Shown here one piece after another: positions 8,456-57,416 of a stretch of 64,000 nt of DNA. The position numbers and the translations under genes are program-made. The notes below the pieces were generated by a model, which did no database searches, was not told the origin of the DNA, and worked only from the letters and a program-made list of their open reading frames with translations. Position 1 is the stretch's first letter. Every line of letters begins with the position of its first letter. The stretch spans positions 845 to 64,844 of the forward strand of contig CANJRC010000008.1 in the NCBI GenBank assembly GCA_947476535.1, written 5' to 3'. This DNA is from Betaproteobacteria bacterium. GTDB lineage: Bacteria > Pseudomonadota > Gammaproteobacteria > Burkholderiales > SG8-39.

Positions 8456-10188
8456 CAGACGCCCAAGTCTCCGTTCGCAAGGTTCCGTTGCGCGCCGAGG
8501 ACAAGCTGGTGCGCGCCGGCGTGCACCCCATCATCGCGCGATTGGCGGCCGCCCGCGGCATCGCCGACAAGAGCGAGCTTGACGACTCGCTGGCCGGGCT
8601 TATCCCGCCCACCGACCTGAAGGGGGCAGCCGAGGCCGCAACACTGCTCGCCGACGCCATGGAAAAAGGCGAGCGCATCGTCATCGTCGCCGATTACGAC
8701 TGCGACGGCGCGACAGCCTGCGCGGTGGGCGTGCGGGCCATGCGGGCCATGCGCCTCAAGTCCGGGGCGCGCGCCGGCCAGGCGGCTGACGTGCGCTACA
8801 TCGTCCCCGATCGCTTTCGTTTCGGCTACGGACTCACGCCGGAAATCGTGCAGCTCGCGGCCGAACTCAAGCCCAGCCTGCTGGTCACCGTGGACAACGG
8901 CATCGCCAGCGTGGAGGGCGTGGCCGCCGCTAACGCCCTGGGCATCCGCGTCATCGTCACCGACCATCACCTGCCTGGAGCGGAATTGCCCGCGGCCGCA
9001 GCCATCGTCAACCCCAACCAGCCGGGCTGCACGTTCCCGAGCAAGAATCTCGCGGGCGTGGGCGTCATGTTCTACGTCATGCTGGCGCTGCGCGCCGAGC
9101 TGCGGCGGCGCGGCGTGCTCGAGGGCGAAGGGCCCAATCTCGGCGAGCTGCTCGATCTGGTGGCGCTCGGGACCGTCGCCGACGTGGTCGCGCTCGATCG
9201 CAACAACCGCGTGCTGGTGGCGCAGGGACTCAAGCGCATCCGCGCCGGGCGAATGCAGCCGGGACTTCGCGCGCTGTTCGCCGTGGCCGGGCGATCGAGC
9301 ACGCGGGCGGCCTCATTCGACATGGGCTTCCTGCTGGGACCTCGCATCAACGCCGCCGGGCGCCTCGCGGACATGGCACTGGGCATCGAGTGCCTCGTCA
9401 CCGAGGATGCCGGGCGTGCGCTGGAGATTGCCCGCAGCCTCGACGATCTCAACCGCGAGCGGCGCGGCATCGAGGGGGACATGCGCGAGCAGGCCGAGAA
9501 GATGCTCGCCAGCGTCAGCGTCGGGGATTCGTACTCGCTGTCGCTGTTCGATCCGGCCTGGCATCAGGGCGTGGTGGGCATCCTCGCCGGGCGCGTGAAG
9601 GATCGCTGGCACCGGCCCACCATCGCCTTCGCCCGCGCCGAGGACACCGGCGGTGCGCAGGAATTGAAAGGATCGGGCCGCTCCATTCGCGGCCTGCACC
9701 TGCGCGATGCGCTCGATCTTGTCGCCAAGCGCGAGGCGGGCGTGCTGATCCGCTTCGGCGGCCACGCTGCGGCGGCAGGCGTCACCCTCCTCGAATCGGA
9801 ACTGGCGCGATTTTCTGCCGCATTCGAGCAGGCGGTGCGCGACATGCTGCCCCCGGAGGAACTGGCCCACCGCATCGAGACCGACGGCTCGCTCGAGCCC
9901 TCCTACATGAGCCTCGCCACCGCGCGCCTGCTGGAGGACCAGATCTGGGGACAGGCTTTTCCCCAGCCGCTGTTCTGGGACGAGTTCAGCGTGGTGAGCC
10001 AGCGCATCGTCGGAGAGAAACACCTCAAGCTGAAACTTCGGCGCGGCGACCAGACGCTGGAGGCCATGCACTTCAACGCATCCGAACCACTGCCCGCCGC
10101 CGTGAGAGCTGCCTACCGAATATCAGTCAACGAGTACAACGGCGTGCAGAGCCTGCAACTCATCATCGAGCATTGGGAAGTGCCGTGA
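8452..10188 (+). CDS. recJ: Single-stranded-DNA-specific exonuclease RecJ
   Basis: ADYDCDGAT, TVDNGI, TDHH, LAGVGV, GTVADVV, GPRINAAGRL, KGSGRS, FGGHAAAAG. Confidence 0.97.
   Translation: MTDAQVSVRKVPLRAEDKLVRAGVHPIIARLAAARGIADKSELDDSLAGLIPPTDLKGAAEAATLLADAMEKGERIVIVADYDCDGATACAVGVRAMRAMRLKSGARAGQAADVRYIVPDRFRFGYGLTPEIVQLAAELKPSLLVTVDNGIASVEGVAAANALGIRVIVTDHHLPGAELPAAAAIVNPNQPGCTFPSKNLAGVGVMFYVMLALRAELRRRGVLEGEGPNLGELLDLVALGTVADVVALDRNNRVLVAQGLKRIRAGRMQPGLRALFAVAGRSSTRAASFDMGFLLGPRINAAGRLADMALGIECLVTEDAGRALEIARSLDDLNRERRGIEGDMREQAEKMLASVSVGDSYSLSLFDPAWHQGVVGILAGRVKDRWHRPTIAFARAEDTGGAQELKGSGRSIRGLHLRDALDLVAKREAGVLIRFGGHAAAAGVTLLESELARFSAAFEQAVRDMLPPEELAHRIETDGSLEPSYMSLATARLLEDQIWGQAFPQPLFWDEFSVVSQRIVGEKHLKLKLRRGDQTLEAMHFNASEPLPAAVRAAYRISVNEYNGVQSLQLIIEHWEVP
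10120..10188 (+). repeat. Left copy of recJ 3'-end direct repeat (attL-like)
   Basis: 54/69 identical by hand alignment to 57348..57416; exact 25-bp core AGTACAACGGCGTGCAGAGCCTGCA at 10133-10157. Confidence 0.9.
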
Positions 10189-10222
10189 TATGACATTACA
10201 GCGATATTGACAGGCAGCGCCC

Positions 10223-10642
10223 TCAGAGCCCTTTGCTTACACTGCCCAGAGCGATCTTCCAGGCCGAGAAGCGCTCGGCACTGGACGGAAATTTGGGATG
10301 GTTGCAGCGTGCGATCACAAGCGTGCCCCCGTCCGCCGCAAACTCCATTGCCTCGATGAACGACAGTTGCTCCTCATAGGCTTTCCGTTGGTCGTCGCGC
10401 ACCTGCTTTGACTCCTCCGAGGACCACAGCGATTTCCCGCGGAGATTTTCAATCACCTTCTCCACGATCTGTTTCTGCTGTCCACCCGTCGGATCACAAA
10501 GATAAAGGCTGCCGTTCGCCTTGTCGCCCGCGTCATAGGTGATTGCCGTATTGCGAAAAATCGCAGCGCCGTCCCAGGTCGGGGCTGACTGATTTGCTGC
10601 AGCGGCACCGACATCTAGACGGCTTTCTTTTATGTCACTCAT
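10223..10642 (-). CDS. Hypothetical protein (139 aa)
   Basis: AGGAG RBS upstream of the ATG; natural-looking composition; no family recognised. Confidence 0.7.
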   Translation of the reverse strand: MSDIKESRLDVGAAAANQSAPTWDGAAIFRNTAITYDAGDKANGSLYLCDPTGGQQKQIVEKVIENLRGKSLWSSEESKQVRDDQRKAYEEQLSFIEAMEFAADGGTLVIARCNHPKFPSSAERFSAWKIALGSVSKGL

Positions 10643-10713
10643 CTCGCTCTCCTGTGATGCCCGCCCTCATCGAGGTTAGTGCCCCTCCGGTCGGACAATA
10701 CGAACGTTTGTCG

Positions 10714-11733
10714 TTACTGGGGTTCTACGCCTGCCGCCCGCAGGGCCGCTGGCCAGTAGGCGTATTGCTTGGTGAGGAACTCCCCGAATTCACGTGACGT
10801 TCCGCCTTTTACGGAAACGCCATTGCCGGCAAGGCGCTCCCTGGTCTGGGCGTCGTCAAGGACTTTTGCGACGAGCGCATTAAGCCTGTCGACAAATGCA
10901 ACCGGCGTTCCCTTCGGCGCAAGCACCCCCCACCAGGAACCCGCATCCATGATGGACAAATCGACACCCGCCTCCTTGAACGTCGGCACCTCGGGCAGGA
11001 CCGCCGCCCGCGCGGCACCGGTCACGGCCAGCGCTCGCAATTGGCCTGAGAGGATCTGGGCACGGACCACCGTTGCAGAGGCGAAGGTCAATGGCACATG
11101 GCCGCCGACCACATCGGCCAGCGCCGGAGCAGCCCCCTTGTATGGAACCTCGACCATCTTTACACCAGTGCTCTGAAGCAGCGCGACGACCGCGAGATAG
11201 GGAGTACCCGCGCCTGCATGCGCAATGCTGATCGAGCCGGGCTTCGCAGCAGCAAGCGAAATCAGTTCCTTGACCGATGTGGCCGGCAGCGCAGGATGGG
11301 CGACGAGAACCAGCGGCGCCGAGCCGACAAAGGCGATCGGAACCAGGTCCGATTTCGGATCGTAGGCCAGGTTCTTGACCAGGGCGGGGCCAGTGGGCAG
11401 GCCCATATCTCCCAGCAACAGCGTGTATCCGTCGGGCTTTGCCTGCGCGACCAGACGTGTTCCGATGGTGCTGCCAGCACCGCCACGATTGTCGACAAGA
11501 ATCTGCTGCTGGATAAGCTCCGTGAGCTTCGACGCGATGATCCGCGCGACTGAATCTGTCGCCCCACCCGCCGGGTAGGACACCACCAGGGTGATCGGGC
11601 GGGCCGGATAGTCCTCCGCGGGAAAAACCGCTCCTGAAAGCGACCACAACAGGGCAGCGGCCCCGGCCAGCGCGACGCTCCGCCTGTCCATGCGCCCATC
11701 CAACTTCCCTTTCAGCCATTTAACGCACTTCAT
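10714..11733 (-). CDS. Bug/TctC tripartite tricarboxylate transporter substrate-binding protein
   Basis: YPARPITLVVSYPAGGATD, DNRGGAG, PDGYTLL, VPYKGAAPA, PEVPTFKEAG; AAGGAG RBS. Confidence 0.92.
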   Translation of the reverse strand: MKCVKWLKGKLDGRMDRRSVALAGAAALLWSLSGAVFPAEDYPARPITLVVSYPAGGATDSVARIIASKLTELIQQQILVDNRGGAGSTIGTRLVAQAKPDGYTLLLGDMGLPTGPALVKNLAYDPKSDLVPIAFVGSAPLVLVAHPALPATSVKELISLAAAKPGSISIAHAGAGTPYLAVVALLQSTGVKMVEVPYKGAAPALADVVGGHVPLTFASATVVRAQILSGQLRALAVTGAARAAVLPEVPTFKEAGVDLSIMDAGSWWGVLAPKGTPVAFVDRLNALVAKVLDDAQTRERLAGNGVSVKGGTSREFGEFLTKQYAYWPAALRAAGVEPQ

Positions 11734-11844
11734 TGTCCAATCTCCTTAATATTGCGCCGGGAACATACTGGTCATATCATCACAGCAGCATCGCATTACA
11801 GATGGCTTTCTCCTTGCGTCCATACAGTACTCGTGCGCAAGGCC

Positions 11845-12585
11845 CTACTCCTTCGCCGCCATCGGGAACCTCAACAATAGGGCTTCGAGTCCTATCTCAT
11901 CCGCCATCACTTCAATGGCGTCTCCAGCACTAACCCACATCAGTGAGTGCGTTGGAAAACTGTCGCGCCCCGTCACAAGGCAGCCATTGGCGACAAATAT
12001 GTACATCCCGCCGGACTCCGCGGTATCCGGGGTGGGTACCGACATGCCGGCACCCAGGCGCAATACGAAGGCCGCCAACCCGTCGGACTGCGCCTCGAAC
12101 AAGGGTTCAAGGCTGGACTGGTCCCGCGCAGCCCTGACGGGCTCGATACACAGGCTGACGTTGGCAACGGTGTATTGGCGCCTCTTGCCCGGCAGTACCC
12201 GTTGGCGGGATCCTGGTTCATCGCTATAGATAATCCGGCTGTCCTGTCGAGGACGCAGGGTCAGGTAGGAGAAGCCGGTGTTCCCGGCAGCGACGGGGCC
12301 ATAGGCGGAGTGATGATCCGCATAATGCACGCCAAGCTTCGTGATTTCGTGACGCCCGAGACGACCGCAACCGTCGAGAAAAACCTGAAATTGGTCTACT
12401 TCATGAAAATGCGGTTTGGTGACAGTGTCGGCCCCCATGTCGACGCGAAACGCCAATGGCGGCCCGTCTGTCGACGTCACGCCAAATGTCCCGAGATAAT
12501 TCGTGCGCCAGGACGGTCCGGCAATTGCACCCTGGATCCGCGCGCGCCGCTTCGCGACCTCTGCTGCCGAGACTGAAAGAATCAT
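11845..12585 (-). CDS. Hypothetical cupin-like protein
   Basis: PHFHEVDQFQVFLDGCG resembles cupin motif 1; HYADHHSAYGP follows. Confidence 0.6.
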   Translation of the reverse strand: MILSVSAAEVAKRRARIQGAIAGPSWRTNYLGTFGVTSTDGPPLAFRVDMGADTVTKPHFHEVDQFQVFLDGCGRLGRHEITKLGVHYADHHSAYGPVAAGNTGFSYLTLRPRQDSRIIYSDEPGSRQRVLPGKRRQYTVANVSLCIEPVRAARDQSSLEPLFEAQSDGLAAFVLRLGAGMSVPTPDTAESGGMYIFVANGCLVTGRDSFPTHSLMWVSAGDAIEVMADEIGLEALLLRFPMAAKE

Positions 12586-12630
12586 CTTTGCTTGCTGTAT
12601 TTGTTTGTTTTCGAAGACTGACGACCGCGC

Positions 12631-13809
12631 CTATTGTCCCGGAACAGTCGCCCTGGGAGCGAGCAGATCGGGCGTGATGTCGGATATCCGGCCGACCCCG
12701 CACAAATGCATGGTGCGGCGGAGTTCCTCCTCGAGGATAGACAGTGCGCGCGCCGCTCCCGCATCCCGCCCCGCGAAGGCTCCAAACAGCGTGGCACGGC
12801 CGATCAGCACTGCCTGGGCGCCACACGCCAGCGCCTTGAACACGTCTGCACCGTGCCTGATGCCTCCATCCAGCAATACCGCCAGACGGCCACCGGCGGC
12901 CGACACCACCCCCGGCAGCGCATCGATCGATGCGATGCAGCCGTCGAGTTGTCGGCCGCCGTGGTTCGAAACGACCACACCGTCACAGCCCAACCTGACC
13001 AGGGGCTCGACGTCGTCTCCCCGTATAACGCCCTTTACCAGCATCCTGCCCTTCCAGGCGTCACGGATCCCTTTCAGTCCGTCCCAATCAAATGCAGGAT
13101 CGTAGTTGCGGCCGACCGTTGAGGTGACCGCGACGACGTCGCCGCCCGGAACGAAGTCCGTCAGGTTGCCGAGTACCGGCTTACCGTGACGAATCATCGA
13201 CCAGGCCCAGGCAGGGCGGGAGGCAAAATCAGTCACGTTGCGCAGGGTGAACCGGAACGGATCCGCGAAATCGTTGCGCAGGTCCCGCAAGCGCCGGCCG
13301 CCAACCGGCAGGTCCACCGTGACGATCAAACATTCATAGCCAGCATCCTGCGCGCGCTGGATGAGGCTGTGTGTGAAGTCTCGCTGCTTGAACATGTAGC
13401 ACTGGAACCAGAGCCTCCCGCCGACCTGCCGCGCCATCTCCTCAATCGAGGGCGTTGCGGAGGTCGCCAACGAGTAAGGTATCCCGAACTGACGCGCTGC
13501 CTTAGCGATCGCGCAATCGGCTCCGTGCCAGCCCACCCCGGCGTGACCGGTCGGTGCGATCGCAATCGGCATTTCCACGCTCTTGCCGAAAATGTTCGTC
13601 TGCAGGTCCACTTTCGACGCTCCGCTGAGGATCTTAGGCATCAGGCGGATACGCGCAAAAGCAGCGACGTTATCGCGCAGCGTCAGCTCGCGCTCAGAGC
13701 CCCCGTCGAACACGTCAAACACGGCCCGTGGCAGGCGGCGTCGGGCAAGCCCACGCAGGTCTTCGATGCAGTACGCTCTGTCCAGGGATCGGGGCGCGTA
13801 CGAACTCAT
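12631..13809 (-). CDS. FMN-dependent alpha-hydroxy acid dehydrogenase/oxidase
   Basis: PIAIAPTG, LWFQCY, LIVTVDLP, VKGV, VVSNHGGRQLDG, DGGIRHGADVFKALACGA. Confidence 0.92.
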   Translation of the reverse strand: MSSYAPRSLDRAYCIEDLRGLARRRLPRAVFDVFDGGSERELTLRDNVAAFARIRLMPKILSGASKVDLQTNIFGKSVEMPIAIAPTGHAGVGWHGADCAIAKAARQFGIPYSLATSATPSIEEMARQVGGRLWFQCYMFKQRDFTHSLIQRAQDAGYECLIVTVDLPVGGRRLRDLRNDFADPFRFTLRNVTDFASRPAWAWSMIRHGKPVLGNLTDFVPGGDVVAVTSTVGRNYDPAFDWDGLKGIRDAWKGRMLVKGVIRGDDVEPLVRLGCDGVVVSNHGGRQLDGCIASIDALPGVVSAAGGRLAVLLDGGIRHGADVFKALACGAQAVLIGRATLFGAFAGRDAGAARALSILEEELRRTMHLCGVGRISDITPDLLAPRATVPGQ

Positions 13810-13847
13810 CGGCGCGACAGGATATTCACTCTTTGCGTCTTCGTCCG

Positions 13848-14861
13848 CTATTCGGGCTGGACACCGGCGGTCTTCAGCATGCGCGGCCAGTAATCGTACT
13901 GTCCCTCCATGAGACGGGTGAATTCATCGACACTGCTTCCCACCACGGATATGCCTCCCGCTGCATAGCGTTGCCTTACATCAGCATCACGTAGCGTCTC
14001 GTTGACAATGCCGTTCAGTTTCTGGATCACATCTCTTGGCGTTGCGGCCGGCACCATCAGGCCCCACCAAATGCCGGCATCCAGATTAGGCAAGTCGATG
14101 CCACTCTCCTTGAAGGTCGGTACATCGGGCAGGATCGCCGCTCGCTTGAGCCCAGTCATGGCAAGCGCGCGGACCTTGCCGGCCTTGGAGTGCTCGACGA
14201 CTGCATTGCTGATCTGGAACCCGACATGCACCTGGCCACCGATCACATCGGTTAGTGCCGGCCCCGCCCCTTTGTAGGGAACATAAACCATGTTTGTATG
14301 TGTTTCCTGCGCCAGCGCTATCATCGCCAAATAGGACATCCCGCTGCCAGGGTGCGCAAAATTGATCTGCCCCGGCTTGGACTTGGCAAGGGCAACCAGC
14401 TCCTGTACGTTCTTTGCAGGCACGGAAGGATGAGCAACCAATGTCAGCGGCGCAGTGACGACCCATACCACGGGGGCAAAATCTCGCTTCGCATCGAAAC
14501 TGGGATTCTTGAACAGCGCTGGCGTGGTCGGCAGGCTGGGGTCCGCCCAGAGCACGGTATAACCGTCCGCTGCCGCTCTGGCCACTGTTGCGGTGCCGAT
14601 TGTTCCTCCCGCACCGGCCCGGTTGTCCACAATGACTGGACGTCCCACAACATCGCCCATCTTTTGGGCCAGGATCCGTGACGCAGCGTCGCCACCACCG
14701 CCGGCGGGATAGGGCACCACAATGGTGATTTGCCTGCTCGGATAACTCTGTGCCGTGGCCACACCCGCGCCGCAGGCCAGACCGAATCCGGCGATCGACG
14801 CCGCAACGGCGAGAAAAATACTTCTCAACTTCAGGCCACTAACATTAGATCTTGTTCGCAC
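13848..14861 (-). CDS. Bug/TctC substrate-binding protein
   Basis: Signal peptide, YPSRQITIVVPYPAGG, DNRAGAGG, VPYKGAGPA, PDVPTFKESG. Confidence 0.92.
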   Translation of the reverse strand: MRTRSNVSGLKLRSIFLAVAASIAGFGLACGAGVATAQSYPSRQITIVVPYPAGGGGDAASRILAQKMGDVVGRPVIVDNRAGAGGTIGTATVARAAADGYTVLWADPSLPTTPALFKNPSFDAKRDFAPVVWVVTAPLTLVAHPSVPAKNVQELVALAKSKPGQINFAHPGSGMSYLAMIALAQETHTNMVYVPYKGAGPALTDVIGGQVHVGFQISNAVVEHSKAGKVRALAMTGLKRAAILPDVPTFKESGIDLPNLDAGIWWGLMVPAATPRDVIQKLNGIVNETLRDADVRQRYAAGGISVVGSSVDEFTRLMEGQYDYWPRMLKTAGVQPE

Positions 14862-15029
14862 GTTGGACTCCCCTCGCTTCGAATACCGACAATGTTCACC
14901 CTCGCCGGCTCAGGATGCTTGCTGTCGCCCGGTCGAGTTTCCTAGGTGAAGGGATTTTGGCCGCTATTGCCGCGAGAAGAAAGGTCCCCGAACCCACTTT
15001 TCTATTCCTACCAGGCACAAGAGTTGTTC

Positions 15030-16283: not shown

Positions 16284-16308
16284 AGGGTCCTCTCCTCTTT
16301 CGACTGGG

Positions 16309-18012: not shown

Positions 18013-18076
18013 AGACTGCCTTCCCGAGTAAAGTAACGCCCGCGGCCGGCGCAGCCCGTGACCCTGCGCTGCGAGT

Positions 18077-45712: not shown

Positions 45713-45862
45713 CGTCCGGCGACGTGCATGAACCAGAAAACCTCGCAGGCGCAATCGTCCTTCCCACCAGGCGCAACGACGCAGCAGCCATGACGAACGG
45801 GGACGGCGCCGACCAGGTGGAAAATCCCGTGCGTCAGCGAGCACCTCCCAGATCAGACACTC

Positions 45863-46489: not shown

Positions 46490-46625
46490 CTAGCCAGTTT
46501 CCGGCCCGCAGCCACGAAGAGGAAACGCGCAGCCACAAACGTCAACTGCACAGGCGAGACTCTCTTCATACTCTCGTCCCTGTTCGAGCTTTGCGCATAT
46601 ATTTGCGTGCCCTTGGTGCATCCAT

Positions 46626-47618: not shown

Positions 47619-47700
47619 TTTCACCTCCACGTTTTTTCGCCACGACATCCCTGCCTCACGCATGACTTACGGCGCAATTATCTGCCAGCCTCTATGCTAA

Positions 47701-47745
47701 ACAATGCGCTTACTGGAAACAGACCTCGTCCTAAAACTCCACGAT
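47701..47745 (-). promoter_or_regulatory. Conserved 45-bp upstream element, copy 2
   Basis: Matches 45668..45712 at 37/45 positions. Confidence 0.6.
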
Positions 47746-47935
47746 GGGCTGTCGTTGTTTCGTCGGGCCGGCGCCCGCACCCTTGCTCTTTTTTCCAAGG
47801 TGAGTTTCCGAATACGGGTTGGACCCGAGCGAGCGCGACGCTAAACTCGGCCACGACTTTCGGGTATGACCGCGCCGACATTCTTGCGGCCTCGAATCAT
47901 TGCCATCCAGGTACAGACGACTAAAGGGCCGAGCC

Positions 47936-48832
47936 ATGCGCTTGTGTGAAGGACGCGTTGCGATCGTGACTGGCGCCGGCCGCGGCGTCGGGCGCGCACA
48001 CGCGATGATGCTGGCCGCGCACGGCGCCAGGGTGATCGTCAACGACCTTGGCGCCACGCTCCAGGGCGACGGCAACGATCCGACGCCCGCCGCCGCGGTC
48101 GTTGACCTGATCCGCAAGAACGGGGGCGACGCCGTGGCGAACGGCGACGATGTCAGCAATTGGGAGGGAGCGAGGCGCCTCGTCGCCCATGCCGTGGATA
48201 CCTACGGGGGGCTCGACGTGCTCGTCAACAATGCCGGCATCCTGCGTGACCGGTTTCTCACCAACATGACCGAAGACGAGTGGGATGCCGTGGTGAAGGT
48301 CCATTTGAAGGGAACCTTCGCCCCGATGCGGCATGCCATCGACCACTGGCGCGCACGGCACAAGCTGACCGGCGAACCGGTCAATGCCCGCATCATCAAC
48401 ACCACTTCGATCTCGGGCCTGTTCGGCAACCCGAGCCAGGCCAACTACGGTGCCGCCAAGGCCGGCGTTGCCGCGCTGACCATCATCGCCGCGCGCGAAT
48501 TGGGCCGCCTCGGCGTGACCTGCAATGCGATATCACCCTTCGCCATGACGCGCATGACCGAGGGACTTGGCCAGATCACGCCCGAGCAGCGGCGCCTCGG
48601 CGATCCGGCCAACAATTCTCCCGTCGTGGCCTGGCTGGCGAGTACCGACTCCCAGGACATCACCGGCAGGATATTCCGTATCGGCAGCGGCTTTGTATCG
48701 GTTATGGAAGGTTGGGAAAACGGCCCGCGCTTCGACCCGATCGACGACGCGGCGGCGCTCGGCGCAGTCATCCGCACACACATCGCGAAAGCACGCAAGA
48801 ACACCGGCCCCAAGGGCACCCCACTCGACTAG
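47936..48832 (+). CDS. Short-chain dehydrogenase/reductase
   Basis: TGAGRGVG, VNDLG, NNAGILRD, NYGAAK (YxxxK). Confidence 0.93.
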   Translation: MRLCEGRVAIVTGAGRGVGRAHAMMLAAHGARVIVNDLGATLQGDGNDPTPAAAVVDLIRKNGGDAVANGDDVSNWEGARRLVAHAVDTYGGLDVLVNNAGILRDRFLTNMTEDEWDAVVKVHLKGTFAPMRHAIDHWRARHKLTGEPVNARIINTTSISGLFGNPSQANYGAAKAGVAALTIIAARELGRLGVTCNAISPFAMTRMTEGLGQITPEQRRLGDPANNSPVVAWLASTDSQDITGRIFRIGSGFVSVMEGWENGPRFDPIDDAAALGAVIRTHIAKARKNTGPKGTPLD

Positions 48833-48918
48833 ACCGCGCCAGACGAACACCGAGGAGAGTCCCCAGCGGCGCTCTGGGGCCTGAAACGGCAGCGTCACAA
48901 CAATCACGGAGCTCATCC

Positions 48919-50115
48919 ATCGCCACCGACCCGGATTCAATCGAAGCGTTCCGCGAAGAAGTGCGGGTATTCCTGCGCGCGAGCGTGACGCCCGCGCTGC
49001 GCGAGCGCGTCCAGGCCGGCAACTACCTGCAGAAAGACGAGTACTTGGCGTGGCAAAAGGCGCTCGGCGCTCGGGGCTGGGGCGCGCCGAACTGGCCGGT
49101 CGAGCATGGCGGCGCGGGCTGGTCCGCCCTGCAGAAATATGTGTTCGAGGATGAGTCGGCTCGAATGGAGGCGCCGATCCCGGTGTACCTGCGCAACGGA
49201 CTGCACATCGTCGGGCCATTGGTCATCCGCTTCGGACGCGACGATCAGAAAGCCCGCTACCTGCCCCGCATCCTCAATGGCGACGAGTTGTGGGCACAGG
49301 GTTTCTCGGAGCCTGGCGCTGGCTCCGACCTGGCCGCCCTTCGTTGCGCTGCCAGCCTGGAGGGCGAAGCGTACATCGTCAACGGCACCAAGATCTGGAC
49401 GAGCCTTGCCCATCTCTCCGCACATTGCCTGCTGCTGGTGCGGACCAGTTCCCATGGCTCAAAGCACGACGGCATCACGATATTGCTGGTGGACCTGAGC
49501 CTGCCCGGCATCACCATCCGGCCAATCAATGCCATCGATGGCTACCACCACCTCAACCAGGTGACCTTCGACAATGTCCGCGTGCCCGTCGACTGCAGGC
49601 TCGGCGAGGAAGGAAACGCATGGAAGATGATCGGGGTCGGCCTGGATGCCGAGCGGCTCTTCCTGGCCGACATCGGCCTGTCCAAAAGCCTTTTGCGAAG
49701 GCTGCGAACCATTGCGGCGCACATGCCGCACGGCGACGGAATTCTCTCCGGGCAGACATGGTTCGGCGATCGTCTCTCCCGCCTCGAGATCCGCCTGATC
49801 GCGCTGGACGGCATGGTCCTGCGTCTCCTCCACGCGCCCGACAGGATCACCTCGAAGGAAGCCTCGATGCTGAAGCTGCGCGGCACCGAACTCGCGCAGG
49901 ACATCAGCCAATTGATGAGCGAGGCCGCCGGCATGCACGCGCTGCCCTACCATCACGACGTGCTGGGAGGCGGCTGGCAGGGGAAGCCAATCGGCCCGGC
50001 ATTTGCCACAACACTGACCCCGTTCTTTCTCTTCTGGCGCAAGGCCACGATCTCAGGGGGCACCAGTGAAATCCAGAAGAACATCATTGCCCGATCCCTC
50101 TTCGGTGCGAAATGA
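48919..50115 (+). CDS. Acyl-CoA dehydrogenase (PimC-like large subunit); start uncertain (ATC at 48919 or GTG at 48961)
   Basis: AFREEVRVFL, WPVEHGG, WAQGFSEPGAGSDLA, NGTKIWTS, TISGGTSEIQKNII. Confidence 0.85.
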   Translation: MATDPDSIEAFREEVRVFLRASVTPALRERVQAGNYLQKDEYLAWQKALGARGWGAPNWPVEHGGAGWSALQKYVFEDESARMEAPIPVYLRNGLHIVGPLVIRFGRDDQKARYLPRILNGDELWAQGFSEPGAGSDLAALRCAASLEGEAYIVNGTKIWTSLAHLSAHCLLLVRTSSHGSKHDGITILLVDLSLPGITIRPINAIDGYHHLNQVTFDNVRVPVDCRLGEEGNAWKMIGVGLDAERLFLADIGLSKSLLRRLRTIAAHMPHGDGILSGQTWFGDRLSRLEIRLIALDGMVLRLLHAPDRITSKEASMLKLRGTELAQDISQLMSEAAGMHALPYHHDVLGGGWQGKPIGPAFATTLTPFFLFWRKATISGGTSEIQKNIIARSLFGAK

Positions 50116-50118
50116 CGC

Positions 50119-51264
50119 ATGAACACCATGATCACTGACGAACAGACCCTGCTGCATGACACGGCGTTACGCTTTGTGCGCGAGCAATATGGGCTGCGCG
50201 ACCGGCAGGCGTCGATCGACAGCCCCGGAGGATGCCGCCCGGCGATCTGGCACCAGTTCACCGAACTGGGGTGGCTCGGACTGCCCTTCCCCGCCCGCCA
50301 TGGCGGCTTTGACGGCACCCCGCTCGACGTGCTGCATCTGATGCAGGCCTTCGGCCGGGGACTGGTCGTGGAGCCTTACCTGTCATCGGTAATCCTATCC
50401 GGTGGCGTGATTCTGAGTGGCGGTAGCGAAGGCCAGAAGGAACGGTACCTGCCACCGCTGATCAGTGGCGGGTTCCGGCTGGCTTCGGGATTCCATGAGG
50501 AAGGCAGCGGCGGTTCAACCGCTCATGTGTCAACGACGGCGCGCCCAACACAGGACGGCTATTGCCTGGATGGGCAAAAGTCCGTCGTCCTGGGGGCAAC
50601 CGGCACCGATGCCCTCATCGTCAGCGCCCGCACGCAGGGCAACACGCGCGATGACGGCGGCATCTCGCTGTTCCTGCTCGATGCGCGCACGCAGGGCGTA
50701 ACGCTGCGCCCGTACATCCTGATCGACGGCCGCCATGCCGCCGATGTGACCCTGAGGAATGTTCGCGTCCCTAACGATGCGATTCTCGGGCCTGTGGGCC
50801 AAGGCAAGGCCCTCGTCGAGCAGGCAATCGACGATGCAACGCTCGCCTGTGTTGGTGAGGCTGTGGGCGTCCTTGAGCGTGCCCTCGAGATGACCATCGA
50901 CTACCTGAAAACCCGCCAGCAGTTCGGCCAGCCACTGTCGGCATTCCAGGTGTTGAAGCACCGGGTCGTCGATATTTACATTGCCCTGGAGGAACTGCGC
51001 TCGCTCGCCCTGTCCGCAGCGAGCGAGCGCGACCCGCTCGAGCGGTCAAAGGCCATTTCAGCCGCAAAGGTCCATATCGGAGAAGGCGGCACCCGAGCGA
51101 TCCTCGACACTATCCAGCTGCACGGCGCGATCGGAATGACCGAAGATTACGCGCTGGGTCACTATGTCCGCCGATTCACTGCCATTGACCGGCTGTTTGG
51201 CGGCGCGGCAGAGCACCTGACGCGATACCGGCGCAGTCCCGGCGATGCGGGTCATGCCGCCTGA
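50119..51264 (+). CDS. Acyl-CoA dehydrogenase (PimD-like small subunit)
   Basis: ELGWLGL, GRGLVVEPY, YLKTRQQFGQP, FQVLKHR, IQLHGAIGMTED. Confidence 0.9.
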   Translation: MNTMITDEQTLLHDTALRFVREQYGLRDRQASIDSPGGCRPAIWHQFTELGWLGLPFPARHGGFDGTPLDVLHLMQAFGRGLVVEPYLSSVILSGGVILSGGSEGQKERYLPPLISGGFRLASGFHEEGSGGSTAHVSTTARPTQDGYCLDGQKSVVLGATGTDALIVSARTQGNTRDDGGISLFLLDARTQGVTLRPYILIDGRHAADVTLRNVRVPNDAILGPVGQGKALVEQAIDDATLACVGEAVGVLERALEMTIDYLKTRQQFGQPLSAFQVLKHRVVDIYIALEELRSLALSAASERDPLERSKAISAAKVHIGEGGTRAILDTIQLHGAIGMTEDYALGHYVRRFTAIDRLFGGAAEHLTRYRRSPGDAGHAA

Positions 51265-51339
51265 CCGGCAGACCGCGAGCGCGATCAGTGACAACAAAGC
51301 CAAACCCGGCCCTGGAGGCCCAATGAGGAGGGGAGATCA

Positions 51340-51996
51340 ATGCCAGACGACGACTTCAGGGCGTTGACACGGATCGAGATGGCGCAGCGGATCGCACGGG
51401 ACATTCCCGAGGGCTGGTTCGTGAACCTGGGTTTTGGCATGCCGACGAGCGTGGCCGATCACGTGCCGCTCGAGCGTGAAGTCATCTTCCATTCCGAACA
51501 GGGCGTGATCGGCATGGGCCCGGCACCCGGGCCGGGTGAACTGAACCCGTGGCTGCTCAACGCCAGCAAGCAGCACGTCACCTTGCGCACGGGTGGCTCC
51601 TACGTGCACCACGCCGAGAGCTTCGCCATGGTCAGGGGCGGGCATATCGACCTGTGCGTTCTCGGCGCATACGAAGTCTCCGAGGCAGGCGACCTTTCCA
51701 ACTGGACGACTTCCGAAGACGACATCGCTCCCTCGGTCGGCGGCGCCATGGATCTCGCTGCCGGTGCGAAACGGCTGTGGGTCCTGATGGACCATGTCAC
51801 CAAGCAAGGCAGACCCAAGCTGGTCAGGCAATGCACGTATCCGCTTACGGCACTGGCCGCGGTCGACCGCATCTATACCAACCTGGCCGTCATCGACGTG
51901 ACGCCCAAGGGCCTGGCCGTGGTCGAGATGGTGCCCGGCATGACCCTGGACACACTACAAGCCATGACAGGGGCGCCCTTGCGGTTAGATAAGTGA
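51340..51996 (+). CDS. 3-oxoacid CoA-transferase subunit B
   Basis: Paralog of 34767..35426 (VNLGFGMPT, HSEQG, GGAMDL). Confidence 0.9.
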   Translation: MPDDDFRALTRIEMAQRIARDIPEGWFVNLGFGMPTSVADHVPLEREVIFHSEQGVIGMGPAPGPGELNPWLLNASKQHVTLRTGGSYVHHAESFAMVRGGHIDLCVLGAYEVSEAGDLSNWTTSEDDIAPSVGGAMDLAAGAKRLWVLMDHVTKQGRPKLVRQCTYPLTALAAVDRIYTNLAVIDVTPKGLAVVEMVPGMTLDTLQAMTGAPLRLDK

Positions 51997-52057
51997 ACTT
52001 TCTTCAGCAAACCGTGCCAATGGATATTTTGATCATACAAAATCGGAGAGGATCGCA

Positions 52058-53296
52058 ATGAAACCGGGCATCTTAACGGGATTTCGGGTACTGGACCTCA
52101 GCCGCGTGCTGGCCGGCCCCTGGGCGTGCCAGATACTGGCCGACCTTGGCGCGGAAGTCATCAAGGTCGAGCGGCCTGGAGAGGGCGACGGGTCGCGCGT
52201 GTTCGGCCCGCCGTTCCTCCAATCGACGGACGGACGCGAACTGAACCAGACGGCCATCTACCTCGCCGCGAACCGCAACAAGAAATCGATTGCCATCGAC
52301 ATCGCAAAAAAGGAAGGACAGGAACTGATACGGAAATTGGCGGCGCGATGCGATGTACTGGTGGAAAACTACAAGGTGGGTGATCTGGCGCGCTATGGGC
52401 TCGACTATGACGCCATCAAGGCCGTCAACCCCGGCATTGTCTATTGCTCCATCACCGGATTCGGCCAGACCGGGCCGTACCGGAACCGGCTCGGCTACGA
52501 CACGGTCTTCCAAGCCATGAGCGGCCTCATGGAATCGACCGGGCCCGCGATTGGCGCTCCGGGAGGAGGCCCGACAAAGGCCGGCCCCAGCATATCGGAT
52601 CTCTTCGGCGGCTTGTATGCCGACGTCGCCATCCTGTCTGCGCTGCTCAATCGTCAGCGCAATGGCGGTGATGGCGGTGAATACATCGACCTCTCGCTGC
52701 TGGACTGTTCAGTTGCGGCAATGACCAGCATTGCCATGCAATACATGATGACGGGCAATGTGCCGGAGCGGCTTGGCAACGGTGGAAATGGCGGTGTTCC
52801 CGCGGATGTCTTCGAATGCCAGGGCGGCAGCATCTACATGATCTCCGGCAACGATCAGCAGTACTACCGCATGTGCGAGGCGCTCAAGCGGCCGGACCTG
52901 GCACAGGACGAACGCTACCGGCTGCAGCGCGGGCGCATCGCGCGCCGCCACGAGATCGTTGCGACCTTCAGAGACGTGCTCAGGCCGCTCCCTATCAGGG
53001 ATGTGCTGGATGCTCTCGAGAAGGCCGGTGTTCCCGCCGCACCGATCTACAACCAGAAGGAAGTGTTCGAAGACCCGCATATCCGCGAGCGCGGCATGCA
53101 AGTGGAAATCCCGCATCCCGATGCCGGAAAGCTTTCCTTGGTGGCCAACCCCATCCGTTTTAGAGAACATCCCATCACCGAGTACACGGCACCACCCCAC
53201 ATCGGCGAGCACACGGAGGACATTCTTTCCACCCAACTGGGGCTCGACAAAGCGGCTATCGAGGGCCTAATCGCCGCGGGCGTGGTGGCCGCATGA
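52058..53296 (+). CDS. CaiB/BaiF family III CoA-transferase
   Basis: RVLDLSRVLAGP, ADLGAEVIKVE, NRNKKSI, SITGFGQTGP, GYD. Confidence 0.94.
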   Translation: MKPGILTGFRVLDLSRVLAGPWACQILADLGAEVIKVERPGEGDGSRVFGPPFLQSTDGRELNQTAIYLAANRNKKSIAIDIAKKEGQELIRKLAARCDVLVENYKVGDLARYGLDYDAIKAVNPGIVYCSITGFGQTGPYRNRLGYDTVFQAMSGLMESTGPAIGAPGGGPTKAGPSISDLFGGLYADVAILSALLNRQRNGGDGGEYIDLSLLDCSVAAMTSIAMQYMMTGNVPERLGNGGNGGVPADVFECQGGSIYMISGNDQQYYRMCEALKRPDLAQDERYRLQRGRIARRHEIVATFRDVLRPLPIRDVLDALEKAGVPAAPIYNQKEVFEDPHIRERGMQVEIPHPDAGKLSLVANPIRFREHPITEYTAPPHIGEHTEDILSTQLGLDKAAIEGLIAAGVVAA

Positions 53297-53414
53297 CCGT
53301 CCCGGGAACCGGCATGGCCGCGGTACGAGGCAATGGCAAACGAATCATCGCCGGAGCAGACCCTCAACCGGCACAACACATCGAATTCATCATCGGAAAA
53401 ATCCGGAGGCAAAG

Positions 53415-54611
53415 GTGTCAATAGAGAAAGTCGCAGTCATCGGAAGCGGGCTCATGGGCCATGGCATTGCGCAGGTTGCCGCAATGACGGGCCAGACCGT
53501 AGTGCTCATCGACAAATCGGAATCTGCGCTGGCGTTCGCCAGTCAGAAAATGGGCGAAAGCCTGAAGAAGCTGGCCGAGAAAGGCCGGATCAAGGAGACG
53601 CCGGAAGCCGTGCTGGGCCGGATCCGGACCACGTCGAGCCTCGCCGACGGCGTTCGCGATGCACAATTTGTCATTGAGGCGGTATTCGAGGAAATCAACC
53701 TGAAGCGCAACCTCATTGCCGAAGTCGAAGTCCTCGCGCCAAAGGACACCATCCTCGCCACCAACACCAGCGGCCTGTCGATCCGGGCGATATCCGGCAA
53801 GGCCAAGAACAAGGCGAAGATCATCGGCATGCACTGGATGAACCCGCCGCAACTCATGAAGCTGGTGGAACTCATCAGGAGCGACAAGACCGACGACAAC
53901 ACGCTGCAGACGACGCTGGATCTGTGTACACGCTACGGCAAGGAAACGATCATCGCGCAGCGCGATGTGTGGTGCTTTCTCTCCGGGCGCGCTCGCATGG
54001 GATTTTCCATGGAGAACTGCATCATGCACCTGGCGAACGTAGCCGACCACAGGACGCTGGACGCGGTCACGCGCTACAAGCTCGGGTTGCCGATGGGCGA
54101 GTTCGAACTGCTCGATTTCACCGGCTCCATGGACATCCGCCCCAGGAGCCTAGAATCGCTTGGCGAAATTCTCAAGGACTACCCGGACTTCGAGCCATGG
54201 CCTGAATTCCGCACCGCCTACTCCCATCTAGCCAGGGGCGTCTGGACCGACATGTCATCCAGAGGCCTGTCCGGCGTGAAGTCGGGACAGGGCTACTACC
54301 CTTATCCCGGCAACAAGTACCTCAAGCCCGATATCCAGAAGGAACTCGCCAACACGATCGATCCCGTGCAATTGATGGCACCGGGCCTCAACTGCGCTGC
54401 CTGGTGTGTCACCAACGGTGTGGGCAGCGTGGCGGACATCAACAAGGCCAATCGCCTCGCCTTCGGCTGGCCGAAGGGCATCTTCGACTACATTCCGGAC
54501 TATGGCATCGCCAGGATCATCGAGGTGCTCAACGCCAAGGAAGCCGCGGCGCCCAACTGGCTGCGCGGCTTCTATCGCGTTGATCCGCTACTGGCAAACT
54601 GGAAAGCCTGA
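53415..54611 (+). CDS. 3-hydroxyacyl-CoA dehydrogenase family protein (paralog of 763..1959)
   Basis: Same 398-aa length; about 82% identical by hand count. Confidence 0.9.
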   Translation: MSIEKVAVIGSGLMGHGIAQVAAMTGQTVVLIDKSESALAFASQKMGESLKKLAEKGRIKETPEAVLGRIRTTSSLADGVRDAQFVIEAVFEEINLKRNLIAEVEVLAPKDTILATNTSGLSIRAISGKAKNKAKIIGMHWMNPPQLMKLVELIRSDKTDDNTLQTTLDLCTRYGKETIIAQRDVWCFLSGRARMGFSMENCIMHLANVADHRTLDAVTRYKLGLPMGEFELLDFTGSMDIRPRSLESLGEILKDYPDFEPWPEFRTAYSHLARGVWTDMSSRGLSGVKSGQGYYPYPGNKYLKPDIQKELANTIDPVQLMAPGLNCAAWCVTNGVGSVADINKANRLAFGWPKGIFDYIPDYGIARIIEVLNAKEAAAPNWLRGFYRVDPLLANWKA

Positions 54612-54635
54612 CCTAGAAGAACGGTGAGGGAAAAC

Positions 54636-55424
54636 ATGATCATGAATAACGCCATCAAATACGAACAGCGTGGGACCGTTGCGTGGATCACGCTGAACCG
54701 CCCAGACCAGATCAATGCCGTCAACGACGGCATCCGCAACGGCCTCGTACAGGCGCTCGATCAGGCGGAGACCGATGATGCGGTGCGCGCAATCGTGCTC
54801 ACTGGTGCAGGTCCGCGCGGGTTCTGTGCCGGCGCAGACATCAAGGAGTCTCGCGGACCTGAGACCCCCGTGGAAGCGCGACGCAGGATGCTGCGAAACA
54901 CGCATTTCGACGCCCTCGAGCGCGCCACGAAGCCTGTGATCGCCGCAATCCATGGCGTGTGCATGGGGGGCGGCTTTGAGATTGCACTCGCCTGCGATAT
55001 TCGAATTGCGTCCCCGGACGCCGTATTCGCGCTGCCCGAAACCGGGCTGGGCATCATTCCCGGTGGCGGTGGCACTCAGCGGCTCCCGCGCATCGTCGGT
55101 CTTGGCCGGGCCCTCGACTTGATCCTGACCGGCGACCGGATCGATGCCCAGGAAGCCTTGCGCATCGGTGCGATTTCCCGGCTCGTCACGGATAATGCGC
55201 AGCTGATCCCCGAAACGGAAAAACTCGCGCAGCGAATTTGCGGCAAGCCGCCCACGGCCACCGCTTACGCCAAGGAGTCTGCACGCGGCGGAATGGAGAT
55301 AGACCTGAAGGCGGGACTGCAACTGGAGAAAACGCTGTTCACGATGCTTCTAACGACCGAGGACCGCCGTGAAGCATCCACTGCATTCAAGGAAAAGCGC
55401 ATACCGGTTTTTACGGGGAGATAA
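54636..55424 (+). CDS. Enoyl-CoA hydratase/isomerase (paralog of 1..672)
   Basis: FCAGADIKE, GGGFEIALACDIRI, PETGLGIIPGGGGTQRLPR. Confidence 0.93.
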   Translation: MIMNNAIKYEQRGTVAWITLNRPDQINAVNDGIRNGLVQALDQAETDDAVRAIVLTGAGPRGFCAGADIKESRGPETPVEARRRMLRNTHFDALERATKPVIAAIHGVCMGGGFEIALACDIRIASPDAVFALPETGLGIIPGGGGTQRLPRIVGLGRALDLILTGDRIDAQEALRIGAISRLVTDNAQLIPETEKLAQRICGKPPTATAYAKESARGGMEIDLKAGLQLEKTLFTMLLTTEDRREASTAFKEKRIPVFTGR

Positions 55425-55579
55425 GCCCCTGCCGACGACAAAACACAGGCGGAATCGGGAAATCATCATTTGCCTGTGACAGTAATATGCCTTGACACTC
55501 AATGCTGATAATGGACTATTTAATATTTTGTCAGTAATTAAGTGGATATACGCCGGAAAATTGCAAAGTGAGGCCACGC

Positions 55580-57304
55580 ATGGAAAAGAAGACAATTATC
55601 GGCACGGGCGGCGAACTGCTCATGCACCAGCTGGTTGCACAGGGCGTCGAACACGCCTTCATGAACACGGGCAGCGCGGAAGCGGGCTTCTACGACGCCT
55701 TCCTCACCGTTCCCGGCGTGCAGCCGATCCTCCTGCTGGCCGAATCGCTGGTGTTGTCGGCCGCCGACGGCTATGCCAAGGCCTCCGGGCGCACGGCGTT
55801 CGTGAACGTGCATCTCGCGGCCGGCACCCGCCAAGGCTCGGGCCAACTGCAGAATGCCTGGTTCGACGGCACGCCGATGGTGGTGACCGCCGCGATGAAG
55901 GACTCGGGCTCCTTCGGCGATCACAACACGGTGGCCTCTTCAGCCGGGTTCTCACAAACAGCCGCAATCGAGGACATCACCAAGAGACGCTGGGAGGTGA
56001 CGGACGCGCGCGGCATCCCGATGGCCACTCGCCGAGCCTTCAAGGAAGCGATGACCCTGCCCACCGGCCCGGTCTATCTCGCACTCTCGACCGCCGCCCT
56101 GGATGCAAAAGGGGTCGAAGGCACAATCCAGGCGGCCCGCCCGCTGGAGATGGCGCAGGTGCCGAATGGCACGACCATCGAGAAGATCCACGCTGCACTG
56201 CTCAACGCAGAGCGGCCGCTTCTGCTCGTCGGCCCGGACGTCCGGGCAGCCGGCGCACAACGCGAACTGCTGGCGCTATCAGAAAACTACGCGCTGCCCA
56301 CTGCGGTCGGGTATTTCGATTACGGCGGCTTCCCGCTGAAGCATCCCCACTACATCGGCATGATCGACGACCTTCCGGACAGGGGCTACGACGTCGTCTG
56401 CTGCATCGGCTACCGCCAGAACACCCGTGCCAACCCGGCAGACGAGAAATTTACCGACGCCGGCACCATCATCGCCATCGGCCACGACCCGGCGATGATG
56501 GGCAACACCTTTGCGCTTGACCTCGATGTCTGGGGCAACGTGCGGCACACCCTGACAGCACTCAATGCGCTTTGGACAGCAGAACAGGCAAAGCTGCCAC
56601 ACATCAACAAGCGCAAGCTGGTTCTGGCGGCACAGAGCCAGGCCCGGCTCGCGCTACAGAGAGAGCAGGCGCTCCGGTTGGCAAAGGACAATCCGATCCA
56701 CCCGGCCCTCCTCGGCGATTCGATGGCGCGCAACCTGGCGAAGAACACCCTGCTCGTCTCCGAGAATTTCCGTGCCTGCGACGATCTCCTGCCCTTTGGC
56801 TACGGAGAAAGCGACTGGCAAATGATACGGACTTATGGCGGCGGCCTTGGCCACGGCGTGGGCGCCGCAGTCGGCGCGCAACTCGGCGCGCCGGGCCGCC
56901 CGGTCGTGCTCAGCCTCGGCGACGGGGCGGTGATGTATAGCGCGTCCGGATTCTGGACCATGGCGCGCTACGGCCTGCCCATCCTCACCATCATCTGGAA
57001 CAACCTCCAGTACCAGACCGTACGCGCCAACTTCGCCGCCTGGGGCGGCAGCTTCAAGTCGCAGAACCGCTACCCGGAGACCTTCCTGGGCGATCCGGAG
57101 ATCGACTTCGTGATGCTCGCCAAGGCGCAAGGCATCGAAGGCATGCTCGTGCGCGAACCTGGGGAACTGGATGCCGCGATCCGGCGCGGCAAAGAAGCGC
57201 AGGCTGCCGGGCAGCCGTTCGTGATTGACGTCCGCATCGCCAACGTCGGGGCGGGGGCGGACCAGAACTGGCACATGCGCTACGCATTGCCGACGGCGCA
57301 TTGA
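55580..57304 (+). CDS. Thiamine-diphosphate-dependent enzyme (benzoylformate decarboxylase/acetolactate synthase superfamily)
   Basis: ESLVLSAADGYA (catalytic Glu), PTGPVYL, GDGAVMY...WNN ThDP motif. Confidence 0.88.
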   Translation: MEKKTIIGTGGELLMHQLVAQGVEHAFMNTGSAEAGFYDAFLTVPGVQPILLLAESLVLSAADGYAKASGRTAFVNVHLAAGTRQGSGQLQNAWFDGTPMVVTAAMKDSGSFGDHNTVASSAGFSQTAAIEDITKRRWEVTDARGIPMATRRAFKEAMTLPTGPVYLALSTAALDAKGVEGTIQAARPLEMAQVPNGTTIEKIHAALLNAERPLLLVGPDVRAAGAQRELLALSENYALPTAVGYFDYGGFPLKHPHYIGMIDDLPDRGYDVVCCIGYRQNTRANPADEKFTDAGTIIAIGHDPAMMGNTFALDLDVWGNVRHTLTALNALWTAEQAKLPHINKRKLVLAAQSQARLALQREQALRLAKDNPIHPALLGDSMARNLAKNTLLVSENFRACDDLLPFGYGESDWQMIRTYGGGLGHGVGAAVGAQLGAPGRPVVLSLGDGAVMYSASGFWTMARYGLPILTIIWNNLQYQTVRANFAAWGGSFKSQNRYPETFLGDPEIDFVMLAKAQGIEGMLVREPGELDAAIRRGKEAQAAGQPFVIDVRIANVGAGADQNWHMRYALPTAH

Positions 57305-57347
57305 AGCTGGCGAACTTGCCGGACTGTGTTGCAGTACCGCTTCCTGG

Positions 57348-57416
57348 ATATCCGTAAACAAGTACAACGGCGTGCAGAGCCTGCAGGTGCTGATCGAGCA
57401 CTGGGAGAAACGCTGA
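57348..57416 (+). repeat. Displaced recJ 3' fragment (attR-like right repeat)
   Basis: Encodes ISVNKYNGVQSLQVLIEHWEKR* versus recJ ISVNEYNGVQSLQLIIEHWEVP*; exact core at 57361-57385. Confidence 0.9.

Follow-up and report, generated by a model that had tools for sequence, protein, structure and literature searches.

A displaced recJ gene end marks the far junction of a 47-kb metabolic island in a freshwater Burkholderiales genome

Why should the end of a housekeeping exonuclease gene, recJ, occur twice on one bacterial contig, in the same orientation and some 47 kb apart? The question is raised by a window of 64,000 nucleotides (the whole stretch of DNA analysed here) from a Betaproteobacteria bacterium (Burkholderiales, SG8-39; GenBank assembly GCA_947476535.1, contig CANJRC010000008.1, positions 845 to 64,844). 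Its genome, which we call G000, is a metagenome-assembled genome (MAG) of 204 contigs, 87% complete. A first-pass annotation of the window read the arrangement as Campbell-type integration of an element that had supplied a new recJ tail and displaced the original one. In our analysis the insertion and the replacement of the gene end stand, and we favour a different route for them, with modest confidence and taking two variants of the second joint together: recombination independent of an integrase, with recJ as its anchor and the DNA 3' of the gene as a hot spot, displaced the gene end. The argument turns on the following features.

8452-10188, + strand: recJ, 578 amino acids, intact, ending in LIIEHWEVP before the stop (Pfam DHH, DHHA1 and RecJ_OB; NCBIfam RecJ TIGR00644).
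10111-10193, + strand: left copy of the direct repeat, with the last 23 codons of recJ at 10120-10188 and a 25-bp exact core at 10133-10157.
57339-57421, + strand: right copy, the displaced ancestral recJ end, non-functional, ending in VLIEHWEKR before the stop (core 57361-57385; match to the last 23 codons 57348-57416).

The recJ product scores 452 bits against the NCBIfam RecJ equivalog TIGR00644, for which the cut-off is 397. When the alignment of the two gene ends described by the first-pass annotation was recounted, the left copy (10120-10188) and the right copy (57348-57416) proved to lie in direct orientation at an offset of 47228 and to be identical at 54/69 positions, namely 10/13 before the core, 25/25 within it (10133-10157 = 57361-57385) and 19/31 after it, with their TGA stop codons in register. 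An independent repeat search returned the same pair as an 83-nt direct repeat (10111-10193 / 57339-57421) with 76% identity. BLAST of the right-copy region against the whole assembly matched two places only, the second with an E-value of 4.7e-12.

The similarity extends a little beyond the core on its left side. There, 12 of the adjoining 18 nt are matched, a level that was reached in 0.035% of 20000 random-offset 18-mer trials; farther left, identity is 6/18, close to the level at other offsets (10-16 of 45). An anchored-extension test gave P ~0.001 for the left side as a whole. The similarity of the two recJ ends is therefore genuine for ~18-22 nt left of the core. A longer stretch of homology between the junctions, upstream of 10111 or past the stop codon, was considered and rejected, as ungapped identity there was 6/18 per block and the gapped distal part, taken alone, gave P = 0.13.

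To establish which of the two gene ends is the original, we compared the locus with those of relatives in the same genus (G003, G004, G006, G007, G009 and G010). Two further features of the window are needed for this comparison.

10189-57338 (no strand): inserted block, ~47.2 kb (Pfam scans; GC 0.610, against 0.625 for the genome).
58193-63854 (no strand): ancestral right flank, consisting of genes for an enoyl-CoA hydratase (ECH2), an SDR, a luciferase-like oxidoreductase (LLM) and FbiC; downstream of recJ one finds this block in G009 and the SDR gene in G003.

The phosphomutase-like gene upstream of recJ is kept across the genus, whereas the gene downstream differs in nearly every member. 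A PrpD-like gene lies 3' of recJ in G007 and G010, acyl-CoA dehydrogenase genes in G006, a thioesterase gene and the SDR gene in G003, toxin-antitoxin genes followed by ECH2, SDR, LLM and FbiC in G009, and the island in G000 and G004. G009 has flanks ~92% identical to those of the window; its recJ carries a tail of the right-copy type (EKR.., hereafter R-type, as opposed to the L-type of the left copy), the next bases resemble 57417-57455, and ECH2, SDR, LLM and FbiC come after recJ at 92-93% DNA identity. In G003, represented by a short contig, the 360-bp 3' part of recJ is 85% identical and ends in an R-like tail (ENR before the stop), with the SDR gene within ~0.7 kb. By hand count, 28/31 to 29/31 of the nucleotides that come after the core in the right copy are the same as in the working recJ ends of G009 and G003. 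In G004, recJ is ~95% identical to that of G000 and runs directly into TctC1, orf246, the flavin mononucleotide (FMN)-dependent dehydrogenase gene and TctC2 onward, at 73-90% DNA identity, and a second G004 contig matches 48474-56992 at 92-95%; this genome holds an L-type stop-proximal recJ end together with both ends of the island. Since the R-type tails of G009 and G003 stand beside recJ with the right flank of the window, and the L-type end of G004 stands with the island, the right copy is evidently the original recJ tail, and the left tail a newcomer, contiguous with the island, that arrived with the 47.2 kb. Relative to these close relatives, the 47.2 kb is, to judge from the alignments, clearly an insertion.

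The first-pass annotation had thus read a 47-kb insertion with a replacement recJ tail correctly, and the comparison with relatives for which it called supplies the site: in G003 and G009 an R-type recJ is followed by the right flank of the window, an empty or near-empty site. It had allowed that relatives might all lack such a site, or that the fragment might recur at unrelated loci; we found the sites of G009 and G003, and two copies only in the assembly. G009 also holds remnants of the island beside its near-empty site.

These comparisons also bear on two simpler accounts of the locus. In the first, the contig would be a chimaera in which strains had been joined at their common 25-bp core during assembly, as the division of the MAG into 204 contigs might lead one to suspect. 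In Logan assemblies of run X1, the possible source sample, unitigs break at 57378-57407, with a 30-nt overlap lying exactly inside the right copy, and the left edge of the break adjoins 57377, where the working recJ of G009 differs; this hints at other recJ-tail strains co-occurring in the sample. However, Logan contigs of the same run covering 56239-57407 and 57378-57909 span the right junction with 0 differences, as does a contig covering 57319-57507 from run X12 of another study (the runs are public lake and freshwater data sets), and because contigs from two studies bridge it identically, the right junction is not an assembly artefact. In addition, those contigs were assembled with 31-mers, which are longer than the 25-bp repeat; G004 independently has recJ beside TctC1, and G009 independently has an L-type tail beside the end of the gene for the thiamine pyrophosphate (TPP)-dependent enzyme that closes the island. 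We therefore consider a chimaeric contig exceedingly improbable.

In the second account, it is the right flank that moved: recJ with its L-type tail and the metabolic block would be the older arrangement, and a segment comprising the recJ-tail fragment, the intergenic region, the toxin-antitoxin genes ccdAB, ECH2, SDR and further genes would have been imported, with the right copy as its truncated left end. The native order recJ (R-type), intergenic region and ECH in G009 would suit such a donor, and fragments of flanking genes have been left at joints of this locus, an example being the ECH 3' remnant in G009. Yet the outgroup G003 has an R-like tail and an SDR gene beside recJ, which makes that arrangement ancestral; the L-type tail is derived and contiguous with the island, and a second event would still be needed. 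Import of the right flank is accordingly improbable, though less so than a chimaeric contig.

How, then, did the island enter? A first indication comes from the point at which the newcomer sequence begins within recJ.

10080-10188, + strand: diverged donor-type (L-type) tract inside recJ, beginning upstream of the repeat (G000-only sites against G004 and G009).

In a three-way alignment of recJ from G000, G004 and G009, sites specific to G000 number 1 in 9806-10070 (265 bp), 6 in 10080-10125 (46 bp), 0 in the core and 7 in the tail. By hand count, the tract 10080-10188 has ~18 differences in 109 nt from the R-lineage alleles, against ~5% in the rest of recJ. On these three genomes, the foreign recJ tract would start at ~10080, >30 nt outside the duplicated segment, and a single crossover within the repeat cannot produce a tract that starts outside it. 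Situated to the left of the core, with some of its sites beyond the repeat, the G000-specific cluster points away from an exchange confined to the core, with the reservation that it was defined in three genomes only. The recJ tails themselves are mosaics of different composition: G000 is L-type from the core onward, in G004 21 nt of R-type sequence are followed by a final 10 nt of L-type (ending in VLIEHWEMP before the stop), and a pseudogene fragment of recJ in G009 is a third version, which has three of the six G000-type sites in 10080-10125 (10080, 10122 and 10125). In hand counts, the core and tail of the right copy match the working recJ of G009 at 52/56 positions and G004 at 46/46 over the core and R-type part, while the 22 nt to the left of the core have ~7 differences from any recJ of the clade.

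Next to this stands the search for marks of a mobile element. The phage-integrase family PF00589 has 10 matches in the genome and 0 on the contig of the island, and the resolvase family PF00239 has 1 match in the genome, on contig C130, and 0 on the contig of the island. No mobility, phage, conjugation or transposase domain was detected among the Pfam-scanned open reading frames (ORFs) of the island, no tRNA gene at the island or its junctions, and no Rfam match at the junctions. Between the island ends we found no inverted repeats (score 16, against a shuffle mean of 18) and no further direct repeats; the marks of insertion by a transposon or insertion sequence, a transposase and terminal inverted repeats, are thus absent. 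No circle and no empty-site joint at the repeat appeared among the loose ends listed for assembled contigs of 4 runs, although contigs drop rare variants, and two exact-pattern scans of metagenome contigs for circle, empty-site or donor forms returned 0 stretches. A brief literature search found no report of recJ as an attachment site. In sum, we saw no mark of an island that is itself mobile.

Nor does its composition set the island apart. The sliding GC and tetranucleotide profiles proposed by the first-pass annotation place it at the 16th percentile of 47-kb genome windows for GC (0.610, against 0.625 for the genome), and 31% of such windows exceed its tetranucleotide distance; its choice of Gln, His and Glu codons equals that of the genome. 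Composition was therefore rejected as a mark of foreign origin. The contrast in codons after the core, with CAA, CAT and GAA in the left copy against CAG, CAC and GAG in the right, is real; but since codon usage in the island is that of the genome, the argument for an element that the annotation drew from it rests on three codons.

A decayed integrative element would nevertheless account for a good part of what is seen. It would have been circular, with an attP that included a recJ-like tail, and would have entered by crossover of a site-specific recombinase in the 25-bp core, after which the recombinase was lost and the island remodelled. The repeat has the size of an attachment (att) site (69-83 bp), an exact 25-bp core and an end at the stop codon; the left arm of the right copy resembles recJ without agreeing with any recJ of the genus, which is what one would expect of an attP arm; in the new tail the reading frame and most residues are preserved; the site is unoccupied in G003 and G009; and recombinase genes can be lost. 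Several observations speak against it. The contig encodes no tyrosine or serine recombinase, and the ends of the island (34 bp and 43 bp between the repeat copies and the nearest island genes) leave no room for one; the scans revealed no mobility, phage or conjugation gene, and the composition is that of the genome. The foreign tract starts outside the repeat, the tail mosaics vary, and duplications of other lengths elsewhere carry unrelated cargo. We regard a decayed element as rather unlikely, and the Campbell-type integration put forward by the first-pass annotation, which meets the same missing recombinase, genome-like composition and tract start, is not upheld.

From the insertion, the polarity of the tails, the absence of mobility genes and the start of the tract outside the repeat, we infer a donor and a route of recombination. 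The incoming molecule would have been ~47.2 kb of linear chromosomal DNA from a related donor, carrying the complete recJ 3' end of that donor; over the imported tract, donor and recipient are ~83% identical. The first joint would be a homologous crossover in recJ at ~10042-10079, and the second would lie just upstream of the last ~25 codons of the recipient gene, at ~57339-57360; the resident tail would thereby survive as a non-functional relic on the far side of the new DNA, and the gene would remain intact with the tail of the donor. Marks expected of such an anchored displacement are present, in that the donor-type tract (10080-10188) is contiguous with the new DNA and the orphaned resident 3' end lies directly behind the insert.

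The second joint could have been made in either of two ways. It may have been illegitimate and guided by microhomology, as in homology-facilitated illegitimate recombination. Alternatively, the second crossover may also have been homologous, taking place in the 25-bp core with an older recJ remnant by which the island was already bordered in the donor; in that case the island would have passed between strains as a repeat-flanked cassette without a dedicated enzyme. The latter fits better, because the core and tail of the right copy are near-identical to recJ of the clade and the 22 nt to their left have diverged. The 12/18 patch left of the core also has more similarity than is usual for illegitimate microhomology joints, and an older remnant would explain it equally.

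Several points weigh against recombination anchored in recJ as the source of the island. A search of the 87%-complete assembly for ComEC (PF03772) gave no match, and there is thus no support for uptake by transformation. The start of the tract at 10080 rests on three genomes, and one or both of the comparison alleles may be recombinant; of the markers that lie outside the repeat, the independent L-type copy in G009 has just one, 10080 itself. In the right copy, the 18-22 nt that precede the core resemble recJ (12/18) without agreeing exactly with either the recipient or the donor type, and a left arm of this kind is predicted by the P arm of an element or by an older remnant, not by a plain illegitimate joint. 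Finally, no donor with a native L-type recJ and these genes was found in 200 family genomes, and only G004 among these 200 had the genes of the left end above paralogue level.

Evidence that gene ends have been displaced at this place more than once comes from G009 (locus L023 on contig C72, 6800-9000). In this genome the working recJ, whose R-type tail has a stop codon changed to TCA and a 5-codon extension, is followed by an intergenic region, a scrap of ~50 bp from the 3' end of ECH2, a PIN toxin with a MazE/AbrB-type antitoxin, the recJ pseudogene fragment, the last 140 bp of the TPP gene, an antitoxin with a second PIN toxin, a second copy of the intergenic region and the intact ECH2. The dead recJ piece, downstream of the working gene, consists of 61 bp from ~1.1 kb before the end of the gene joined to its last 151 bp; it has an internal deletion between two RRRG-coding repeats and an internal TAG, and at its stop codon it passes into the final 140 bp of the island TPP gene (L023 7746-7885 = window 57172-57311, 94%). 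The remnant is thus bracketed by the two PIN-type toxin-antitoxin pairs and lies between the orphaned ECH2 3' scrap and the intact ECH2. Because it reaches ~1.1 kb before the end of the gene, it does not derive from a crossover in an att core. At some earlier time the G009 locus held the ends of the island, and it has since been rebuilt by events that left truncated gene ends of arbitrary length. The DNA just 3' of recJ is, on this evidence, a hot spot of repeated gene-end displacement.

Similar scars occur in other lineages. A second recJ 3' fragment was present in 2/80 more distant recJ loci, L051 and L065, both on Burkholderiales/Rhodocyclales MAG contigs. In L051 (11340-13320), a recJ copy of ~285 bp with ~93% identity lies behind two lipoprotein genes and is followed by a RelE-like/helix-turn-helix pair; in L065 (11480-12320), a copy of ~130 bp with ~95% identity lies beside a gene for a DUF4143-type ATPase and a duplicated transporter fragment. 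These fragments are 0.4-1.3 kb downstream of recJ, differ from it mostly at synonymous positions and accompany genes unrelated to the island, and in both loci the similarity ends with the recJ stop codon or immediately after it. In a survey of the RecJ tail in 401 genomes of the order (tallies that include four unpublished genomes, G397, G314, G227 and G049), 379 matched, and 11, among them G000, had two matches. When five of the two-match genomes other than G000 were rechecked, they comprised one separate fragment (G400), one paralogue and three split alignments. The search for other recJ-tail duplications suggested by the first-pass annotation thus yielded L051, L065 and G400, and the recJ-tail scar appears from these surveys to be rare but recurrent.

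One may ask whether these cases have a common origin. Tentatively, and with more doubt than confidence, we suggest that in Burkholderiales and Rhodocyclales DNA may enter repeatedly, and without an integrase, at the 3' end of recJ, which is the final gene of a conserved core block. Incoming chromosomal DNA would bring its own recJ tail and push the resident one downstream, the repeat so created would let islands pass between strains by double homologous recombination, and toxin-antitoxin pairs would accumulate next to the orphaned tails. If this were true, "C-terminal displacement" would extend from polymorphic toxins to housekeeping genes and offer a general route for building flexible islands.

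What the island carries is a set of metabolic genes, and the two genes at its ends are described as follows.

10223-10642, - strand: orf139, conserved hypothetical gene adjoining the left junction (no Pfam or NCBIfam family; 31 homologues).
55568-57304, + strand: gene for the TPP-dependent enzyme, the last gene of the island (Pfam TPP_enzyme N, M and C domains).

The 40-odd Pfam-scanned ORFs of the island are metabolic, regulatory or without a known family. They encode 7 TctC/Bug solute receptors and the A and B components of a hydantoinase/oxoprolinase; 3 luciferase-like monooxygenases with a flavin reductase, 2 FMN-dependent dehydrogenases and a GMC oxidoreductase; CoA-transferases, 3 acyl-CoA dehydrogenases, an ADP-forming acyl-CoA synthetase, a thiolase-like protein with ChsH2-OB, a 3-hydroxyacyl-CoA dehydrogenase (3HCDH) and an enoyl-CoA hydratase; and a LysR regulator, a PrpD-like protein and the TPP enzyme. 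The recJ stop codon is separated from orf139 by 34 bp, and the stop codon of the TPP gene from the right copy (57348) by 43 bp. We considered orf139 as a hidden recombinase and rejected it: it has no family, its 31 homologues are all at most "hypothetical", and its paralogues, one of them on contig C60 of G000, lie within other metabolic clusters. It is not found at the matching place in G004, where the spacer between recJ and TctC1 is 97 bp. Another frame, orf142 (47731-48159), is rich in Ala, Pro, Ser and Arg and looks spurious. Outside the genus, the closest relatives of the TPP enzyme are in Alphaproteobacteria MAGs, at 70-80% amino-acid identity; none of the neighbour genes in 6/6 of those TPP loci is common to the island.

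Two observations on other island genes may be recorded here. In the 611-amino-acid acyl-CoA dehydrogenase, the first ~220 residues (48280-48940) have no Pfam match; this N-terminal part is mostly conserved in G004, where the tblastn match runs from ~residue 66, the point at which the G004 contig begins. The pair of genes for 3-hydroxyacyl-CoA dehydrogenase and enoyl-CoA hydratase occurs twice in the window, in the conserved left flank (1-1959) and in the island (53415-55424); in G009 the pair is found only left of recJ, with ~77-81% DNA identity to the island copy.

On the far side of the right copy, a toxin-antitoxin pair precedes the ancestral flank.

57540-57857, - strand: ccdB, toxin (Pfam CcdB, 9.7e-35; NCBIfam CcdB).
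57861-58151, - strand: ccdA, antitoxin (Pfam CcdA, 1.6e-25).

In three loci an orphaned recJ fragment has toxin-antitoxin genes directly beside it: ccdAB in the window, PIN genes (two pairs) in G009 and a RelE-like pair in L051. Promoter and terminator scans of both junctions gave a single site, promoter-like and belonging to ccdA, that exceeds the shuffle expectation. Directly after the R-type recJ stop, 57417-57520 is an AT-rich intergenic stretch with two TATCA-containing boxes ~50-60 nt apart; the pattern occurs twice in G009 (L023 8890-8970 and 6880-6990) and has no Rfam match. At the other end of the flank (60486-63854), an FbiC-type (CofG/CofH fusion) radical-SAM gene, with 97% protein identity in G009, adjoins the luciferase-like oxidoreductase gene and implies synthesis of F420 by this freshwater Burkholderiales MAG.

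The recJ gene itself is intact and thus unaffected. The interest of the locus lies in what it says of large metabolic islands in uncultured freshwater bacteria, which are usually labelled "mobile elements" or left unexplained. Here a displaced gene end forms a readable scar, which gives the direction of the event, a working replacement of a core-gene end, and an island with no recombinase of its own. Should this prove general, a duplicated core-gene end could be used as a simple marker to find and date integrase-independent gain of islands in MAGs, and to tell it apart from true integrative elements.

How does such a locus compare with known systems? Replacement of a gene end by an integrase-bearing element is familiar from phage 21 and e14 in icd and from islands in tRNA genes. 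As in icd, there is a direct repeat of the gene 3' end, the incoming copy differs by synonymous or conservative changes, the gene stays intact, and the original end is found at the far junction. In contrast to phage 21 and e14, however, the island has no integrase, excisionase or mobile-element genes, its foreign tract extends beyond the repeat and its composition is native-like. Flexible genomic islands, for their part, are exchanged by homologous recombination in flanking core genes, usually without a duplicated gene end. The locus resembles them in that a conserved core block (lolCD, the phosphomutase-like gene and recJ) borders a segment that differs in nearly every genome of the genus and carries metabolic and transport cargo; it departs from them in the displaced tail that marks the joint.

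The nearest parallel in mechanism is the displacement of C-terminal (3') gene ends at Rhs, contact-dependent inhibition (CDI) and type VI secretion system (T6SS) effector loci, which has been explained by homology-facilitated illegitimate recombination (Kirchberger et al. 2017, PMC5361080). The likeness to effector displacement covers a conserved 5' part that acts as the anchor, a new 3' end joined to new downstream genes, an old 3' end orphaned downstream, the lack of a recombinase and repeated events at one locus. The differences are that recJ encodes a housekeeping exonuclease and not a polymorphic toxin, that both tails encode nearly the same peptide, so that the tail gains no new function, and that the cargo is a 47-kb metabolic block instead of an effector-immunity pair. 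On the whole, site-specific integration is unlikely, and the locus is probably an instance of gene-end displacement of a known kind, here at a housekeeping gene and with a large metabolic cargo.

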